The translations under genes were made by a program, and so were the position numbers. The notes under the pieces are model-generated. The model saw only the letters and a list, made by a program, of their open reading frames with translations, made no database searches and had not been told where the DNA came from. DNA of 64,000 nucleotides from assembly GCA_951406725.2 (NCBI GenBank), contig OX597815.1:193626001-193690000 (forward strand), given 5' to 3'. Numbering within the stretch: position 1 is the stretch's first letter; each line of letters opens with the position of its first letter. Below, in pieces: positions 6,672 to 59,135 of the stretch. This DNA is from Octopus vulgaris (Eukaryota).

Positions 6672-7086
6672 GGGCGGCGAGCTGGCAGAAACGTTAGCAC
6701 ACCGGACGAAATGCTCACCGGTATTTCGTCTATCGTTACGTTCTGAGTTCAAATTCCACCGAGATCGACTTTACCTTTCATCCTTTCGGGGTCGATAAAT
6801 AAAGTACCAGTTACGCACTGGGGTCGATGTAATCGATTTAATCCCTTTGTCTGTCCTTGTTTTCCTCTCTGTGTTTAGCCCCTTGTTGGTAGTAAAGATA
6901 TAGGTATTTCGTCTGCCGTTACATTCTGAGTTCAAATTCCACCAAGGTCGACTCTGCCTTTCATCCTTTCGGGGTCGATAAATTAAGTACCAGCTACACA
7001 CTGGGGTCGATGTAATCGATTTAATCCCTTTGTCTGTCCTTGTTTGTCCCCTCTATGTTTAGCCCCTTGTGGGTAGTAAAGAAATA
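6672..7086 (+). mobile_element. SINE family B (Nin/Deu-like central domain), head plus two tandem units
   Basis: Head GGCGGCGAGCTGGCAGAAACGTTAGC, B-box-like GAGTTCAAATTCC, central GTCGACT..CCTTTCATCCTTTCGGGGTCGATAAA..AAGTACCAG; the ~185-bp unit is repeated. Confidence 0.85.
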
Positions 7087-7462: not shown

Positions 7463-7853
7463 ACCTATTTCTTTACTACCCACAAGGGGCTAAACATAGA
7501 GGGCACAAACAGGGACAGACAAACGGTTTAAGTCGATTAAATCGACCCCAATGCGTAACTGGTACTTAATTTATCGATTCCGAAAGAATGAAAGGCAAAG
7601 TCGACCTCGGCGGAATTTGAACTCAGAACGTAACGGCAAACGAAATACCTATTTCTTTACTACTCACAAGGTGCTAAACACAGAGAGGACAGACAAACGG
7701 ATTAAGTCGATTATATCGATTACTTATTAATTCGACCCCGAAAGGATGAAAGGCAAAGTCGACCACGGCGGAATTTGAACTCAGAACGTAACGGCAGACG
7801 AAATACGGCTACGCATTTCGCCCGGCGTGCTAACGTTTCTGCCAGCTCGCCGC
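7463..7853 (-). mobile_element. SINE family B, two tandem units
   Basis: Reverse complement of the 6672-7086 type. Confidence 0.85.
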
Positions 7854-14809: not shown

Positions 14810-15027
14810 TTCTTTTACTTGTTTCAGTCATTTGACTGCGGCCATGCTGGAGCACTGCCTTTAGTCGAGTAAAATCGACCCCAGAACTTATTCTTTGTAA
14901 GCCTAGTATTTATTCTATCGGTCTCTTTTGCCAAACGGCTAGGGTTACGGGGACGTAAACACACCAGCATCGGCGACAAATACAGACACAAATATGTACA
15001 CACACACACATACATACACACACACAC

Positions 15028-15093
<66 letters not shown>

Positions 15094-15291
15094 TCTTCTC
15101 TTCTCGTGACCGACCAGACCATCAGATGTTGTTACACATCGCTGGTCACAATGACGCCACCCCGCTGGCTAAGCGAGCAGGCCAACTGAAGAAAGAGTGA
15201 GAGAAAGAGTGGTGAAGGAGTACAGCAGGGATCACCACCCCCTGCCGGAGCCCCGTGGAGCTTTTAGGTGTTTTCGCTATATATGGAGGCG

Positions 15292-15330
<39 letters not shown>

Positions 15331-15469
15331 ACGTACCTCTTTCAGTTTCCGTCTACCAAATCCACTCACAAGGCTTTGGTCGACCCGAGGCTACAGTAGA
15401 AGACACTTACCCAAGGATTCACGTAGTGGGACTGAACCCGGAACCAAGTGGTTGGTAAGCAAGCTACTT
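14810..15469 (-). mobile_element. SINE-A body with a nested SINE-D fragment (~15092-15285); its head is displaced to 20416-20452
   Basis: Family-A tail at 14810 and body to 15469 stop exactly at GGTAAGCAAGCTACTT; the missing continuation ACCACACAGCCACTCCTGCACC is at 20431-20452. Confidence 0.8.
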
Positions 15470-18400
15470 TATTTCATGAAAATTGCCATGAAGGCATTAC
15501 AAAGAGTGGACGAACAAAGACAGACAAACATAAAAAGGTGTAGTAGCTGCTATAACGTTTAAAAATTTATGATGATGAATACAATTTAAAAATTACAGCT
15601 TACAATTTATAATTTACTAGCAGTATTGCCCGGCTCGTGCGCTCGTGCGTTCTATGCACGCGCGAATTAAGCTAAACTTGGATGAAGTTCAATCAAAATT
15701 CAATTATTTTGGTTTTAAAATCAAGCATTTAATGCCCTCTATTTTTGGGCTTATGTGTTCCATTTCCTCAATAGGAAGTACGTAGAAGCGTTTCATAAAT
15801 TTTTGTTGATCAAATAATTGCATTGTTGAATTATTCTTTTAGATCAGTGTTTCTCAAATGGGATTTCAGGGGAGAGTTTCAGGGAGTCGCTGGCGATGTA
15901 TCGTGATGATAAAAAATCCGGCCTGCTAAAATTTGGTTAAAGTGATTCAAACTGCAGACTCAACGCAAAATGGTCACATTTAATTCAAAGCGTTAAAAAT
16001 GTTATGAAAACAATTGGTATGTGTTCACAAAGTCCAAACGATTAATACCAAAAAACCCTCCAGGCTACATCCCGAAAATTCATTTCTTTGCCGAATTTCT
16101 ACAATGTTTACGGCGATTCGTTTTTATATCTTGATTTTTTATTTTTCATACAATTCACGCATGCTTGTACGCATGCTGAACACAGTTCACGTCAAACAGC
16201 TGACTGAGTAAAGTTCACTATTCAATGCATGGGATAAAGCCTAAACAAACACATTATCGAATTTTGCACTTGCGAGATGAATTTCGGAACAGAAATAGCG
16301 CAGTTCAATTTTCATTCGCCTAAACTTTAAGTGACCCATTTTTGGTGGTTCTACGATTTGTTGGCTAGGAGGAGATGTGCCGGGAAGTTAAACACACAGA
16401 CACACACACAGACACACAAGTTGAGTTTTATATATATAGATAATTTACACTTTACAAATTACACATTACTATTTACTGATTACATTATAACATGTTACTT
16501 ATTGCGATTTACAATGACTACCCCGAAGGAAAGGCATCCGACCACCAGGGTAGAACCCTTGCTCTCTCTTTCCTTTTCTTTTCTGGATTCCACTTACCTG
16601 GTGCCAATCGCTCCCAGCTTCCTTGCCACAGGCTTCCATCTTTTCATGAATCTATCTCGTGACAGGTACCTCTTCTCCAGCTTGATCTTACTACTGAGGT
16701 GGCAACTAAAAAAGTTAACCAACTCCTGGCCGGATACAGAGGTACCCGTCACTATGCCTTTCACACGCGTCTTCCATACTGTTTCTTTCAGTATGGCCAC
16801 TACGCAGAAAAAGCAAGCCTTCCTTTCCCTGTTAAGGGAAGGAGGCGGCACAATCTCGATGATAGACTCAGCTGATAGCTGTACTTTTTCCATCGATGGC
16901 AACAGTTGTTCTGTGAAAACTATCAGTCCCGTTAATTCCGGACATTCCACAAATGCGTGCAAGACGGTTTCCCTGTCCCGCTCGCACCTCGGATATGTCG
17001 GCGAGACGGCACTTCCGTGCCTTGACAGCTTATCACGAACAGGTAACGCCGCACGAAAGCACTGCTGAGCCAGGGATGACCCAGATACCCCGACTCGAAA
17101 GCTCTCCTGAACTGGTTGGTCAACTGATTTTCATCCCAAAGCGTCTTCGGACATAAATTCCACTAACCCGCTATAAAATTCCGCGGTGGAACTCCTATTG
17201 CCGGCATTGCCTGCCCGAGAGAGTAGCTGAAGTGTGTGACGGCACTCCAATTGCCAGTCCCCCAGCCTAGGTCTCTCTGCTTGATCCATTTACCAATGTC
17301 CGTTAAGGACGTTTACTGCGAAGGGTAGAACTGGGCGTGCAGTGACCACACCTGCTCTCCATCCAGGTAAAGCCAGAGGTGCCTGAACCTTAACGCGAGT
17401 TTTCGCATCCTCAGCCAAGGCATCCCTAGCCCACCCTTTACCGTTTTCTGGTAGCAGACAGAACGCTTCACAAGTGGCTTTCCTCCTTTCCACAAAAAGC
17501 GGAAAAGGATTCTCTCCAGCTTGTTCAGTCACAAATCGGAGTAAGGTACCACGGTGAGACGGTAGGTGATAATTGACGCTATAAACATCCGCCTTTCCTA
17601 GCAAGGATAACGCCCGCCCAGACCAGGTCTGGGTTAGAGCAGTCAAATTGCTGGTTACCTCACTCCAATTTTTCTCTATCTGGAGGCCTGGCCCAAACCA
17701 GACTCCAAGCAGCTTAACAGGACCTTTCGTCCAACGCCCCACGATGTTATCGGACAGCATTGGAATGCCCCTCCAGGTGCCGAGTTGCAAACCGGCCACC
17801 GCCTCGTAACTTTTGATGGCCTTCATCCGCCACGATGATGGAGATGTCATCCGCATACACCGTAGCTCCTCTTCCACACCGTAGATCATGCGGTGCGCTC
17901 CCTAGTGCCTCCAGTTTCCGCAGTCATGGCTCGAGAGCCAACACATACAAAAGCGGAGACAGGGGACACTCCTGACGCACTGAGCACTCGATCCTGAATG
18001 GCTTCGAAAGGAAACCATTCACTTTTATTACAGACTCGATGTCACTGTACAACACAGCAATCCAACCGTGGAAGGTCGGGCCCAGGCCAGCCTTCTCGAG
18101 GACCGCTGCCAAGTACCGATGGTCGGGCCCAGGCCAGCCTTCTCGAGGACCGCTGCCAAGTACCGATGGTCGACCCTATCAAATGCCTTAAACTGGTCTA
18201 AATGTACCTGCGCCAGAAAGCTTCCCCATCCTCTCTAAGAAGTAGCGTATAATGTGGAAATTGTTATGGATCGTCCCGCCCGGGATAGCGCACGTTTGCA
18301 CTTCCCCTACAAGTCTGTCCTCGACCCGCGCCAAGCTTTTTGCTAGCACCTTGACCAAAATCTTTAACTCTGTGTTCAGCAGAGTTATGGGCCTGAAATT

Positions 18401-19711
18401 CCCTATTTCATCCCCAATGCTTGGGTCCTTCTTGATCAACGTCACCACACACCGGCTCGCAGACTTGGGGATTCTCCCATTCTGCTGCCAATTGGCGTAG
18501 ACGCTGGCCAGCAGGTGACCGAACAAGTCTGGCATACTTTTGTAAAATTCATAAGGCAGACCATCGAGAACCGGCGACTTCTCCTCGGGGCATTCGCCCA
18601 GTACCTTGATCACCTCCTCGGCTGTGATTGGTCCTTCACAGCACTCAGCCTCTCGTGCCGTGAGACGCGGTCCGCCAGACAGGAAGTCCCTAAGGGCCTC
18701 ACCATGATCCAGCGTCCCGCCCCTCTCAAACAACTCGGCAAAGTGCTTGTGAAGTGCCTCACACATCTCGTCCCATCCATCGACCGAAAACCCATTGTCA
18801 TCCACGAGAGACCTAATTGTGGCATCATTGTGGGTTTCTACCGTACGGGCCCATCCGACAATATTAAGTCTCTCACGGCCCAATACGCGCACTTTAACCC
18901 GAACTCTGCACCCCTCATGTTTGGCTTTGAGGTGACGGTCCAACTGTCCTTCTTTTCAATTTTTCGACACTGGGTGAGGGTGATATCTTTATATTACCAC
19001 CCTCCTCTTTCATTCTTTCAAAAAGCTCGGGGAGCTTTTCCGTTTGTAATACTACGTTTTCAGTTACCACCGCGGCAACTACTGCAAATTTCTTAACTAA
19101 CTCATCCAGTGAACTTTTCGGGAATTATTTCGTCCGACATATTCGTTCGAAATAAATTTTACACACAATATTAAATCCCCAAAAACGGGAAACCTATAAT
19201 GCATTTTTATACTTTTTTTTTCCACTCAACGAGGATAGCAGTTCAAATCCCATCTCTACAGGGGTGCGAGGCGCAACAACAAAGCCTACAACGGCCTCTC
19301 AACGATGGGGGGGAGGTGCAACAATAAAGCTGACAACGGCCGAAATCAATTTTTCACACAACAATAAATCCCCAAAACTGAGAAACCTATAATATTTTTT
19401 TCGTTTTAATGAGGATAACAGTTCAAATCCCACCCCCGCTGGGTGTGGAGCACGACAATAAGGCCTACAACGGCTTTAACAAGTTCAATATTTCAACAAT
19501 TCACAACTGCCAAAATGGCTTTACACAAACAAATTCAGTCTCTCGTCACCGGGAAAAAGCACAAAAATTTTCAAATTCAACAATTCAAAAGATGTTCAAC
19601 AGTTCGACAATGTTCAACAATAAACAGTCAACAATTCCAACAGAAAAAACAAGCCAAAGCTCAACAAAACGTTCGACTCACCGCCAAAAAGACACGTCTA
19701 ACAACGAGACC
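15470..19711 (-). mobile_element. Tx1/L1-clade non-LTR retrotransposon with internal deletion (ORF1/endonuclease not seen), decayed RT and C-terminal domain, 16-bp target repeat
   Basis: KSPVLDGLPYEFY, NFRPITLLNTELKIL, SVRQECPLSPLLYVLALEP, KGGLGMP, HAFVECP; bounded by GGTAAGCAAGCTACTT at 15454-15469 and 19712-19727. Confidence 0.85.
15617..16440 (-). mobile_element. Non-autonomous Helitron inserted in the Tx1 3' UTR
   Basis: Minus strand starts TCTATATATATAAAACTC..(GTCTGTGT)n and ends GCCGGGCAATACTGCTAG; sits between A and T. Confidence 0.8.
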
Positions 19712-19727
19712 GGTAAGCAAGCTACTT

Positions 19728-20415
19728 TATTTCATTTCGTTTACCATAAAGGCAGTACACGAGGCTCCGGCAGGGGATGGTGGTGATCCCTGCTTTACTC
19801 TTTCACCACAACTTTCTCTCACTCTTACTTCCTGTTTCTGTTGTACTTGTATTTCAAAGGGCCGGCCTTGTCACTCTCTGTGTCACGCTGAATATTCCCG
19901 AGAACTACGTTAAGGGTACACGTGTCTGTGGAGTGCTCAGCCACTTACACGTTAATTTCACGAGCAGGCTGTTCCGTTGATCGGATCAACCGGAACCCTC
20001 GTCGTCGTAACCGACGGAGTGCTTCCATTCCAGTACAAAGATGGGTAGCTTTGCGAGTTGGACAAGATATTGATGAGGCGAATGATAATAATACAGGATG
20101 ATAAGGATGGGAGAAAACAGAAAGCGCCCGCCGACCCTCTGCTTCACTATAACATTGTTCTTTTTGAAAGACACATCTTGAGGTAATTACCCTCTCACAA
20201 TTTACAATATCTTACAATTTTTTGGACTAAGAAGTCCATTACAATTTAAAGCATAAGACACATATTGAGGCGATGAACCTCTTACCTCAAGTCCCCGATT
20301 AATTCTCTTGCGACCTGCAGGCATCACTGCATCCGCAAGTCGGGGTACCAAGAAAGTAATCTATAATCCTCCCTTGGGAAGGAGCCTGTGGTGTGAAATA
20401 AATCCTCTTTTTCCA
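19728..20415 (-). mobile_element. Second, 5'-truncated Tx1-like copy, interrupted by a SINE-D
   Basis: Its 3' end GCCTTTATGGTAAACGAAATGAAATAA parallels GCCTTCATGGCAATTTTCATGAAATAA of the first copy; C-terminal VARELIGDLR* resembles VARKLGAIGTR*. Confidence 0.65.
19760..20030 (+). mobile_element. SINE-D, 5'-truncated, with 7-bp TSD CAGTACA
   Basis: Body CGAGGCTCCGGCAGGGG.. and tail CGTCGTAACCGACGGAGTGC; CAGTACA at 19753-19759 and 20031-20037. Confidence 0.8.
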
Positions 20416-20646
20416 GTAGCAGAGCTACTTACCACACAGCCACTCCTGCACCAAATTCAATTCATGACACCATTAAGCAATGTAAACTTTTCATTCGTCA
20501 TCGAAGCTTTTGATTTGTGCCCCGCTCAGCTTCAATGCACAAATACACTGTAGATGTTGAAATTCACACGAAGAAACCGGATCTTTCTCTATTGACAAGA
20601 AATCTTGTAATAAGACTGAATAAGGATACACACACACACACACACT

Positions 20647-20712
<66 letters not shown>

Positions 20713-20949
20713 CTAATACATCTGTTTGGTTTGTACACCACCTGTCTTCGTCTTTTGTTTTTTTCGTAAACTCTCCCTATATATACATACATGTGTGTGT
20801 GTGTGTGTGTGTACAAGAAGGTCCTGAAGAGTACTAGGCGTTAAGGGTGTCGCGAAAGCCTGGCTGTAGTCAATCCAAGATAATGACGGCAGTCAATCCA
20901 AAATAATGGACTGTAGTCATTCCTTGATAATGACCAAACTGTCTACCCT

Positions 20950-21350
20950 TATCCGCCAGTTCCAACAAGGTTGAACAAAAAAGGAGATTACTTGACTAGA
21001 TTTGACTGCAAAACCAGTGACTTCTACGGACTTCCCAAAATTCACAAAAGTGAGGCCATAAACGAAGCCGGTAACAAGTCAACCTCTATAGTCATAAATA
21101 TTCCACACCCGAGATATTTCAAAATGAGACCAATTGTGTCCGGTCCCTCGTATGAGATACACAGACTCAATAACTTTATTGATGTCCTCCTTAAACCTAT
21201 CCTCCATCATATACCTAGCTTTATACGGGGTGGCCTGAACTTTTTAAACCAGAAAGTACTCCCTCCTGGTTTCATTCGATGTGATAAACCTCTACACCTC
21301 GACTCCTCGCGAATACGGAATAATAACCATACAATACCGACTGGAAAAAT
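20950..21350 (+). mobile_element. Penelope-like RT fragment
   Basis: FYGLPKIHK, MRPIVSGPS, HIPSFIR and, after a frameshift, LVSFDVINLYT. Confidence 0.8.
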
Positions 21351-21590
21351 ACTCACACGCACACACACAAAGACAGCGCACACCTTTTAAGAGCCGAACT
21401 TGTTTATTTATCAAGGTAGTTGATTTTCAGGCTGTCATTTGAGGTTGTATTTCGGTCAATAACTATCATTTGCTTTATGGTGAGTGTACGTGACTATCAC
21501 AAAAACAGGTCAAAAACGAATTACAAAAATATATACTATTTAAACATCCACCCTAATATCGATACGACGCAGTTGTTCTCGCTCTCCCCA

Positions 21591-21684: not shown

Positions 21685-22034
21685 TGAGATAGGGGTTGTA
21701 AATGCAACCCTCCATGGGATAACATATATCCAATATACTGCTAGTGAAGTACCCAACAAAGTTAATACATAAATGTTAAGAATTGCGATGCAATTAATTC
21801 GTTTACTGTATTATATGGGCAAAGGTAAAATGTTTTACCACAAATTCATAATACAAAATAAGAAAATGGAGAAATACATCGAAATCAAATATCAATTACC
21901 AGATAATACTCAATCACATACTTTATTAAACCACCACATAAGAAACTAGTTTCTTATGTGGTGGTCTAATAAAGTATGTGATTGAGTATTATCTGGTAAT
22001 TGATATTTGATTTCGATGTATTTCTCCATTTTTT

Positions 22035-27359: not shown

Positions 27360-27655
27360 GGAGGCGCAATGGCCAAGTGGTTAGGGCAGCGGACTCGTGG
27401 TCGGAGGATCGCGGTTTCGATTCTCAGACCGGGCGTTGTGTGTGTTTATTGAGCGAAAACACCTAAAAGCTCCACGATGCTCCGGCAGGGTGTGGTGGCT
27501 ACCCCTGTTGTACGCTTTCGCCACAACTTTCTCTCTTTTCCTGTTTCTTGAGTAGCGCTACGATGGACTGGCGTCCCGTCCAGCTGGGAGGAACACATAC
27601 ACCACAGAAACCGGGAAACCGGGCCCATGAACCTAGCTAGGCTTGAAAAGGGCGA
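27360..27655 (+). mobile_element. SINE-D, full length, V-domain-like tail
   Basis: GGCGCAATGGCCAAGTGGTTAGGGC..GTTTCGATTC head; GATGGACTGGCGTCCCGTCCAG tail. Confidence 0.8.
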
Positions 27656-30689: not shown

Positions 30690-31232
30690 TGACCCCAGAG
30701 TTCAACTGGTACTTATTTTATCGACTTCAAAGGATGAGAGGCAAAATGACCTCGGTAGAATTTGAACTCAGAGCATAAAGGCGGACGAAATGCCACTAAG
30801 CATTTTGTCCGGCGTGTTGACGATTCTTATTTCTTTATTGCCCACAAGGGGCTAAACATATACAGGGGCAAACAAGGACAGACAAAGGGATTAAGTCGAT
30901 TACATTGACCCCCAGTGCGTAACTGGTACTTAATTTATTGACCCCAAAAGGATGAAAGTCAAAGTCGACCTCGACGGAATTTGAACTCAGAACATAAAGA
31001 CAGACGAAATACCTATTTCTTTACTACCCACTGAGAGGACAAACAAGGACAGACAAACGGATTAAGTTGATTACATCGACCCCAGTGCGTAACTGGTATT
31101 TAATTTATCGACCCCGAAAGGATGAAAGGCAAAGTCGACCTCGGCGGAATTTGAACTCAGAACGTAAAGACAGACAAAATACCGCTATGCATTTTCCCCG
31201 GCGTGCTAACGATTCTACCAGCTTGCCGCCTT
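30690..31232 (-). mobile_element. SINE-B cluster (three units)
   Basis: Repeated GACCCCGAAAGGATGAAAGGCAAAGTCGACCTCGGCGGAATTTGAACTCAG-type units. Confidence 0.85.
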
Positions 31233-32879: not shown

Positions 32880-33290
32880 CAGAGAGAGACTGAGAGAGGG
32901 TTCTACTCTAGGGAGAAGACCCGTAATTTTGGGGGAGGGGGCCAGTTGATTAGATCGATCCCAGTACGCAACTGGTACTTAATTTATCGACCCCGAAATG
33001 ATGAAAAGCAAAGTCCATTTCGGCGGAATTTGAACTCAGAAGGTAAAGACAGATGAAATACCTATTTCTTTATTACCCACAAGGGGCTAAACACAGAGGG
33101 AGCAAACAAGGACAGACATAGGTATTAAGTCGATTACATCGACCCCAGTTCGTAACTGGTACTTAATTTATCGACCCCGAAAGGATGAAAAGCAAAGTCG
33201 ATTTCGGCGGAATTTGAACTCAGAATGTAAAAACAGATGAAATACCGCTAAACATTTCGGCCGGCGTGCTAACATTTCTGCAAGTTCGCC
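32566..33290. mobile_element. Two oppositely oriented SINE-B copies (+32566-32792; -32900-33290)
   Basis: Family-B motifs on both strands, separated by TA/GA microsatellite. Confidence 0.85.
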
Positions 33291-45219: not shown

Positions 45220-45520
45220 GGAGGCGCAATGGCCCAGTCGTTAGAGCAGCGGACTCACGTCGTAGGATCGCGGTTTCGACTCCCAAATGGGGCATTGTGA
45301 GTGTTTATTGAGCGAACACACCTAAAGCTCCACGAGGTTCTGGCGAACCCTGCTGTACTCTTTCACCACAACTTTCTCTGTCTTTCTTCCTGTTTCTGTT
45401 GTACCTGTTGTACCGCCCTAGTCACAAGTGCTCAGCCACTTGCAAGTTAATTTCACGAGCAGGCTGTTCCGTTGATCGGATCAACTGGAACCCTCCTCGT
45501 CGTAAGCGACGGAGTGCCAT
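45220..45520 (+). mobile_element. SINE-D with the tail type seen at 19760-20030
   Basis: GGCGCAATGGCCCAGT head; CACGAGCAGGCTGTTCCGTTGATCGGATCAAC tail. Confidence 0.8.
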
Positions 45521-46129: not shown

Positions 46130-46199
<70 letters not shown>

Positions 46200-46317
46200 A
46201 GCTTGTTTTCCAACCACATGGTCCCTGGTTTATCCCACTGCGTGACACATTCAGCGAATATCTTCTGTTATAGCCTTGTGAGTGGACTTGGTGGACAGAA
46301 ATTGAGAGAAGCCGCTC

Positions 46318-46371
<54 letters not shown>

Positions 46372-57044: not shown

Positions 57045-57805
57045 ATGCACAAGGCCCAAAATTTTGGGGGAGGGGGTCTAGTCGATTAGATCAACCCCAG
57101 TACGCAACTGATACTTAGTTTATCGACTCCGAAAGGATGAAAAGTAAAATCGACCTCCGCGGAATTTGAACTCAGAACATGAAGACAGACGAAATACCTA
57201 TTTCTTTACTACCCACAAGGGGCTAAACACAGAGAGGACAAACAAGAACAGACAAACGGATTAAGTCGATTACATCGAACCCAGTGCGTAACTGGTACTT
57301 ATTTAATCGACCCCGAAAGGATGAACGGCAAAGTCGACCTCGGCGGAATTTGAACTCAGAACATGAAGACAGACGAAATACCTATTTCTTTACTACCCAT
57401 AAGGGGCTAAACACAGAGAGGACAAACAAGGACAGACAAACGGATTAAGTCGATTACATCGACCCCAGTGCGTAACTGGTACTTAATTTATCGACCCCGA
57501 AAGGATGAAAGGCAAAGTCGACCTCGGCGGAATTTGAACCCAGAACACGAAGACAGACGAAATACCTATTTCTATTTCTTTACTACACACAGGGGGCTAA
57601 ACACAGAGGAGACAAACAAGGACAGACAAATGGATTAAGTCGATTACATCGACTCCAGTGCTTAACTGATACTTATTTAATCGACCCCGAAAGGATGAAC
57701 GGCAAAGTCGACCTTGGCGGAATTTGAACTCAGAACATGAAGACAGATGAAACACCGCTAAGCATTTCGCCCAGCGTACTGACGTTTCTGCCAACTCGAC
57801 GCCTT
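57045..57805 (-). mobile_element. SINE-B tandem array: one head, four ~183-bp units
   Basis: Unit junction GACGAAATACC|TATTTCT at ~57199, 57382 and 57566. Confidence 0.9.
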
Positions 57806-58149: not shown

Positions 58150-59135
58150 TTGTTGTACTTGTTTCAGTAATTTTACTGGCAATGCTGGAGCACCGCTTTT
58201 AGTCTAGCAAATCGACGCCAGGACTTATTCTTTGTATTTATTCTATCGGTCTCTTTTGCCGAACTGCAAGATAACGGGGACGTAAACACACCAACATCGG
58301 TTGTCAAGCGATGGTGGGGGAACAAACACGGACACAAACACATACATATATGTATATACGACGGGCTAAATCCACACATAAGGCTTTGGTCGGCCCGAGG
58401 CTAAGGCAGAAAAGGCAGAGGCTAAGGCAGAATCGTTAGCACGCCGGGTAAAATGCTTAGCGGTATTTCGTCTGCATTTACGTTCTGAGTTCAAATTCCA
58501 CCGTGGTCGACTTTCCCTTTCCTCCTTTCGGTGTCGATAAATTAAGTACCAGTTGCGTACTGGGGTCGATCTAATCGATTGCTCCCACTCCCCCAAAATT
58601 TTCGGGCCTTGTGCTTAGAGTAGAAAAATATATCAGTGTGTCCGTCCCTCACCACCACTTGACAACAGGTGTGTTGGTGTGTTTATACCTCCCGAAACTT
58701 AGCGGTTTGACTAAAGAGATCGATAGAATAAGTACCAGGCTAAAAAATGAATAAATAAAACTACTGTGGTCGATTTATTCGTCTAAAATTCTTCAAGGCG
58801 TTGCCCCAACACGGCCGCAGTCCAATTACTGAAACGAGTAAAAGAATATATGTATATATAGGCGCAGAAGTGGTTGTGTGGTAAGTAGCTTGCTTACCAA
58901 CCACATGGTTCAGGGTTCAGTCCCACTGCATGGCACCTTGGGCAAGTGTCTTCTACTATAGCCTTGGGTCGACCAAACAGTTGTGAGTGGATTTGGTAGA
59001 TGGAAACTGAAAGAAGCCCGTCGTAAATGTGTATGTATATGTGTATATCTGTGTATATGTTTGTATATCTGTGTTTGTCCCCCCAGCATCGCTTGACAAC
59101 CGATGCTGGTGTGTTTACGTCCCCGTAACTTAGCG
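58150..59135. mobile_element. Cluster of SINE-A (-58150-58405, +58630-58850, +58860-59135) and SINE-B (+58425-58630) pieces
   Basis: Family motifs as described above. Confidence 0.75.

Follow-up and report, generated by a model that had tools for sequence, protein, structure and literature searches.

Retrotransposons that lack long terminal repeats (non-LTR elements) choose their targets mainly through their endonuclease, and many families of the Tx1 clade are target-specific (PMC4494074; papers given by accession are cited throughout for the available part of their text). Targets of this clade include U2, microsatellites, and other transposons, among them Tx1D, Mariner-N4_AMi, Harbinger, and LTR families (PMC4494074). 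The case described here comes from a 64-kb stretch of Octopus vulgaris DNA (assembly GCA_951406725.2, contig OX597815.1, positions 193,626,001 to 193,690,000), termed the window, in which an L1/Tx1-type retrotransposon and a short non-coding element interrupt the head of a short interspersed element (SINE) at the same base. The L1/Tx1-type family probably aims its insertions at this single fixed position within the abundant SINE's head, and site-specific nicking by its endonuclease is the likely means.

The closest described systems are the crocodilian Tx1-Mar families with SINEU (Kojima 2015, PMC4494074), which also insert by preference at set positions in an abundant transposon, often in tandem and with short site-sharing partners. 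Their target regions lie in DNA transposons (Mariner-N4_AMi, Harbinger) or LTR elements, whereas the octopus family uses one base of a SINE head (PMC4494074). Xenopus Tx1L in Tx1D is likewise an APE-encoding element with a sequence-specific site inside a mobile element (cited in PMC4494074); Tx1D is a non-autonomous piggyBac family, and the specificity of the Tx1L endonuclease has been studied, as a title cited there indicates, while that of the octopus family is presumed from junctions. Multicopy small-RNA loci house further site-specific non-LTR elements: Keno targets U2 genes, Mutsu 5S genes, and Dewa a tRNA-Leu spacer (PMC3706591), and the tRNA-gene-specific NeSL-1_TV, LIN15_SM, and LIN25_SM fall near the NeSL clade, in the restriction-like-endonuclease group (PMC4640811). 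The octopus family resembles them in site specificity, but their targets are functional genes or spacers and its target is a dispersed, mutating SINE.

The targeting habit is thus already known; the SINE as a target class was not found in print. Transposons are among the known non-LTR targets, and SINEs are not named in the available text of PMC5035012 and PMC8869645. No SINE-targeting long interspersed element (LINE) and no octopus Tx1 target was found in a literature search outside of which lay Repbase Reports, most subscription papers, and the supplements of PMC4494074. Octopus repeat papers give L1-Tx1 as counts or enriched families only (PMC13282606, PMC8967140). The Octopus vulgaris assembly is about 11.6% SINEs and has 13 recently active families among its L1-Tx1, whose targets are not discussed in the available text (0 matches for "target"; PMC13282606).

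The features of the locus lie on the minus strand of the window, where SINE-A, SINE-B, and SINE-C are working names. An earlier note on this DNA had described a SINE-A split on this strand, three copies of a 16-mer, and two diverged elements of the same orientation abutting the same base, the larger with L1-type reverse transcriptase (RT) motifs. All of this is borne out, with the third, altered copy of the 16-mer now delimited. Read along the minus strand, the order is:

20431..20452, minus strand: SINE-A head, the 5' part of the split SINE (21 of 22 positions equal the column majority of 11 window copies)
20415..20430, minus strand: left target copy, altered, containing a perfect 6-bp inverted repeat
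19728..20414, minus strand: small element, non-coding, 688 bp, about 410 bp net
19712..19727, minus strand: middle target copy, exact 16-mer
15470..19711, minus strand: large element, 4242 bp
15454..15469, minus strand: right target copy, exact 16-mer, running straight into the SINE body
15315..15453, minus strand: SINE-A body (B-box-like by eye), running into a (TA)n tract (blastn; 113 of 124 positions equal the window majority)

The head and body belong to one interrupted SINE copy, since 21/22 and 113/124 of their positions fit the majority. A probable SINE-A tail lies further along, at about 14810-14975. Judged by eye against the box consensus, the head holds an A-box-like motif and the body a B-box-like one. 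Allowing three mismatches, the 16-mer occurs at thirteen places in the window, two of which are the copies at the junctions while 11 belong to further SINEs; the SINE body follows in 11/11 of the latter and the head is directly upstream in 9/11. The 16-mer is therefore SINE sequence, and its presence in these 11 copies rules out that it is the terminus of the elements themselves, one of the two outcomes by which the earlier note would have been overturned. The left copy may be a decayed duplication, or a short duplication with fold-back filler, given its perfect 6-bp inverted repeat.

Both elements stop at the same base, each ending ...ATGAAATA. Their last 40 columns match at 31/40, with an alignment score of 42 against 15 ± 3 for shuffled sequence and 0/2000 shuffles reaching it. 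A random second insertion at the identical base and strand would have a chance of about 1 in twice the genome size per event, and the target copy between the two elements is the trace expected from sequential insertion. The target duplication is most likely 15 bp long, its first A being ambiguous. Human L1 has a preference for a short motif only and leaves poly(A) tails; unlike it, the octopus junctions carry no poly(A) run.

Two further observations concern SINE-A. A SINE-B fragment lies within the (TA)n tract of the split copy (window 15100-15290), and the SINE-A copy at 46196-46332 starts exactly at the 16-mer, right after a (GA)n tract.

Site-specific insertion into the SINE is supported beyond the window by contigs from public sequencing runs. 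Contigs of 4/24 runs (X2, X5, X7, and X8; four organism labels, four studies) were aligned to 15440-15640 at 80% likeness; 32 of 8538 contig pieces and 24 of 277 loose-end rows are listed, with long pieces favoured. No RNA data set stands among the runs listed for this stretch, which has no bearing on expression. The 3' junction is crossed by 23 of the 32 listed pieces, and all 23 enter the 16-mer, 18 of them reaching the SINE body and 5 ending within the 16-mer at the contig end. Of the remaining pieces, 8 stop at the contig end before the junction and 1 departs at 15508. No listed piece (0/32) breaks at the junction, and the unrelated flanks that would have spoken against the earlier note are absent from these 32. 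Kojima regards a family as target-specific when more than 20% of its flanks are of one type; here the share is 23/23 crossing pieces of the 32 listed, in a biased sample and for the 3' side only.

Variant letters at 15478 occur in 128, 142, 108, and 104 contigs across the four runs. Because they sum to more than 100 contigs per run, many diverged 3' ends adjoin this junction. Loose ends before 15454 in 5, 7, and 4 contigs (X2, X5, X8) show non-SINE sequence after the 16-mer, like the tandem in the window. In one X5 contig the alignment passes from 15548 back to 15455, as would be seen for a truncated copy of about 100 bp with the 16-mer on its 5' side. Kojima takes truncated copies flanked by target at both ends as the sign of independent insertion; this contig and the small window element are the only candidates of that kind. 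Copy number was not read from summed contig depth, and a depth peak at 15496-15530 was rejected as a family copy number, as it fits the SINE-C tail. The exact 24-nt junction pattern has 0 matches in metagenome contigs, and 0/36 candidate relatives in viral contigs were confirmed.

The large element, a retrotransposon of L1/Tx1 type, is dead and has lost internal sequence by deletion; its parts are the following:

18956..19711, minus strand: 5' region, untranslated region (UTR)-like, with internal repeats of about 190 bp (repeat families D8-D10) and a short broken frame from about 19140
16594..18955, minus strand: remnant of open reading frame (ORF) 2 with linker, RT, and zf-RVT, endonuclease domain absent (Pfam, tblastn)
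16441..16593, minus strand: proximal part of the 3' UTR, after the ORF2 stop, sharing repeat family D17 with the distal part
15617..16440, minus strand: nested insert of 824 bp that splits the 3' UTR and has ends of Helitron type (TC...CTAG, flanked by A and T)
15470..15616, minus strand: distal part of the 3' UTR, ending ...ATGAAATA, without a poly(A) run

The RT motifs appear as a piece of RVT_1 (E 0.002) and zf-RVT (E 3e-5) in Pfam, and tblastn aligns the element with P0001, its best relative, over residues 104-906. In the ORF2 remnant the reading frame is interrupted by stop codons and shifts of frame as well as by a tandem duplication of 47 bp (18071-18164). Against full-length relatives, tblastn homology begins only at ORF2 residue ~330, so the endonuclease domain is missing. 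The short broken frame upstream, like the rest of the 5' region, has no similarity by tblastn to the 636-aa zf-CCHC frame that serves as ORF1 in the sister clade described below. Both element copies are dead, the large one having lost most of ORF1 and the endonuclease. Its distal 3' UTR matches a sister-clade 3' end at 24/29 of the last 29 columns (0/2000 shuffles), and its last 61 nt give no fold signal (z -0.03). Helitrons end in TC...CTAG and sit between A and T, the rule by which the 824-bp insert is named; it is single in the window, and summed contig depth goes up at 15601-15635, being raised in 4/4 runs. An LTR element was rejected, as the window repeat search gave no long terminal repeats.

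The small element shows no ORF2 similarity by tblastn, and beyond the last 40 columns its alignment to the large element is weak (3/300 shuffles). It is either what a 5' truncation has left of a diverged subfamily's 3' UTR or a partner element that is non-autonomous. It contains one nested element:

19759..20030, minus strand: SINE-B, another SINE-like repeat, 278 bp with a 6-bp duplication, matching 45341-45517, 15188-15257, and 27473-27548

The relatives of the large element place it in the L1 group. The closest named proteins are from Argonauta hians, with 51% and 58% identity over the query piece. Among solved structures, the family profile comes closest to human L1 ORF2p (PDB 9k6g, 8uw3), which has an APE-RT architecture (E 3e-112 over residues 3-912; R2 gives 1e-39). 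The RT is most similar to L1 ORF2p and a C-terminal zinc-binding motif is present, as is proper to L1-group elements. APE, absent from the window copy, is found in the sister clade (E 3e-10) and in part in the Argonauta relative P0002 (E 0.004).

A quick tree, for which 80 metagenome loci of 23-36% identity served as rows (they were also used in the tRNA and Rfam scans), joins the window copy with P0001 and the Argonauta proteins P0002 and P0030 (Shimodaira-Hasegawa-like approximate likelihood ratio test, SH-aLRT, 99). This group is sister to 21 rows and sits inside a 25-row clade (SH-aLRT 100). The rows hold no named Tx1 element (Tx1L, Keno, Kibi, Koshi), none being among the database matches, so the label "Tx1" for this family remains one of apparent resemblance. 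The hairpin loop of the sister-clade endonuclease aligns without gaps to the chain LTX (2v0r) and is 2 residues longer than the L1 loop; LTX presumably carries the loop of Tx1L.

The sister-clade relatives share about 42% identity with P0001. The contigs that carry them were assigned to two bacterial metagenome-assembled genomes, G001 and G002, presumably through contamination with host sequence. Their ORF1 codes for 636 aa and contains a zinc knuckle (zf-CCHC), and their ORF2, with APE, RT, and zf-RVT, is intact; their 3' ends read G(A/G)AATA and then AA in 46/46, and one of these ends folds (z -4.2). In G001, intact LINE units of about 6.4-6.9 kb form head-to-tail arrays (L081-L117, L121), where every 3'-end subfamily shows a spacer peculiar to it, 15-19 nt long and kept even ahead of 5'-truncated units. 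The subfamilies have only AA(G) in common at the junction and diverge afterwards. Copy L125 stands alone, with a 14-bp duplication that starts with AG and a different base before it. Hence the element likely ends in ...AATAA, with a duplication of about 15 bp, in the window as well. A telomere-like array is conceivable for the G001 units. SINE-A and SINE-C were absent from searches of G001 and G002, both of which are incomplete genomes. Repeated insertion at the same site, with changing targets, would be a trait of the wider clade.

In the proposed mechanism, the APE endonuclease of an autonomous relative would nick the bottom strand where the 15-16-mer begins. The RNA 3' end (...GAAATAA, without poly(A) at the junction) would prime reverse transcription at the nick, and a second-strand nick about 15 bp downstream would give rise to the target duplication. 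The terminal A of the element would rebuild the A|AG junction, and because this junction is restored the site would be reusable and tandem stacks could form. The small element would have inserted first; it is likely the earlier one because the left target copy is altered while the middle copy equals the right. An insertion that parts the A-box-like motif from the B-box-like one would leave the SINE copy that is hit without a working promoter. The earlier note's picture of the SINE as a self-multiplying landing pad, whose amplification feeds the LINE, is speculative. The target lies within an inverted repeat with a 9-bp stem and a 3-nt loop, and therefore a mirror site on the other strand is possible.

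Several observations weigh against this account. The flank counts come from a biased, SINE-anchored contig sample; the aligned stretch includes 30 SINE bases, which favours SINE-flanked contigs, and what is listed is 32/8538 pieces and 24/277 loose-end rows. The 23 crossing rows represent 20 distinct signatures, several of them apparently one locus seen across runs. X2 record 7 departs from the element at 15508, where 173 of its letters fall outside the alignment, and in three rows from one apparent locus the alignment halts 4 nt beyond the 16-mer, leaving 41-62 letters over. In 3 runs the 3' end is bypassed by a joint of 15468-15564, although this is weak, with a side of only 21 letters. The contig alignment covers 3' junctions, and the 5' junctions rest on the window and indirect rows. 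The window copy lacks the endonuclease to which specificity is assigned, and the Argonauta relative has a hairpin loop that falls 2 residues short of most loops in the sister clade and so is not of Tx1L length. In the sister arrays, spacers differ between neighbouring units, with 7 variants among 19 junctions in one subfamily; because of this variation, a single duplicated site does not account for those arrays.

The site may also be older than the SINE copies that now carry it. Strongly diverged subfamilies use one site (31/40 at the 3' end, little beyond), while SINE copies are about 82-100% like their majority, which suggests a target that predates them. The true or ancestral target could accordingly be a conserved tRNA or other RNA polymerase III gene from which the SINE head derives, the SINE insertions being spill-over. 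Elements of other non-LTR clades, NeSL-1_TV, LIN15_SM, and LIN25_SM, do target tRNA genes (PMC4640811). The title of a work cited in PMC4824008 speaks of three octopus SINEs of tRNA origin. The SINE-A head, however, does not score as a tRNA: ARAGORN gives 0 tRNA genes in the window, Rfam gives no tRNA match to an intact head at E≤10, and the fold of the head is not that of a cloverleaf (z 0.40 and -0.82). Junction contigs run into the SINE body. No tRNA lies near sister-clade copies in 26 relative loci, nor any Rfam family at gathering score in 11 source loci or in a set of 6, and the other Rfam matches in the scans are low-complexity or hairpin miRNA-type chance matches only. A tRNA or similar gene as the real target is thus unlikely. 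Nor is it probable, and slightly less so, that the element 3' end and the SINE body are copied as one unit by 3' read-through, in which case the many junctions would trace back to a single insertion or a handful and not to repeated targeting. The restriction of the contig alignment to 3' junctions would allow this, as would the window SINE at 46196 that begins exactly at the 16-mer and the sister-array spacers that vary as though RNA-borne; some R2 families carry in their 3' UTR sequence taken up from the target (PMC5035012). Yet the small element in the window is preceded by a SINE head and followed by the 16-mer alone, 5, 7, and 4 contigs have non-SINE sequence after the 16-mer, and the 3' ends of the elements are far more diverged from one another than are the SINE flanks.

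The least probable account, and a distinctly doubtful one, holds that the family, like L1, prefers no more than a short motif, an AAG-type step, with the SINE signal inflated by abundance and by the SINE-anchored query. The SINE is indeed very abundant, with 11 other copies of the 16-mer in 64 kb; the sister subfamilies agree only in AA(G) at the junction; and the ascertainment bias of the contig sample is real. A copy with unrelated flanks could nevertheless have aligned over about 80 nt (15470-15550), more than 9 of the listed pieces do (71-79 nt), and still 0/32 listed pieces break at the junction and 0/24 listed loose-end rows fall at 15465-15472 on the flank side. A three-base preference would not be expected to place two separate insertions on one strand at the very same base, parted by a copy of the target. 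Site-specific insertion into the SINE head is the reading that these points favour.

SINE-C bears on the same clade from another side. It has two alternative tails, of which tail-2 (57383-57441) resembles the last 60 nt of the large element (score 52 against 18 ± 4, 0/2000 shuffles). Tail-1 (58579-58640) aligns with the sister-clade 3' UTR copy L132 (0/1000 shuffles, 4/4 tails tested), while L081 and L106 align more weakly; these tests are simple shuffles on biased sequence. The likeness suggests that the L1/Tx1-type clade may mobilise SINE-C. L1-clade tails on SINEs are rare, with 3 found in PMC3747384.

SINE-C also forms arrays of one head and 2-4 body-tail units, at 6720-7086, 7466-7806, 30828-31183, 32944-33246, and 57080-57756. 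Of its tail-2 ends, 7/14 abut the same base of another SINE-C unit, at a junction that is a short inverted repeat, and several whole arrays are flanked by ordinary 14-15-bp duplications at unrelated sites. The tandem units may be inherited from master dimers.

Two other features of the window stand apart from these families. A near-perfect 170-bp hairpin at 21863-22032, with 85-nt arms that are 99% complementary and no spacer, resembles a miniature inverted-repeat transposable element or a fold-back element. Broken plus-strand frames at 20917-21440, without a Pfam match, appear by eye to be a fragment of another retroelement, with a resemblance to Penelope-type RT.

A LINE at one base of an abundant SINE leaves the known mechanism unchanged. 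It explains composite repeat models that are likely to confuse annotation. Its insertions are expected to disable the SINE copies they hit. The related endonucleases with their different targets of about 15 bp form a natural series, providing material for the study of specificity switches. The strategy of using a harmless multicopy target, known from genes and DNA transposons, would be widened to a SINE. It is possible, though tentative, that one L1/Tx1-type clade both drives and parasitises the SINE expansion of octopods, with some subfamilies inserting in the promoter region of SINE-A and related 3' ends having been donated as both tails of SINE-C. If this is true, SINE heads would offer a radiating set of endonucleases a class of targets that is renewable and carries promoters.

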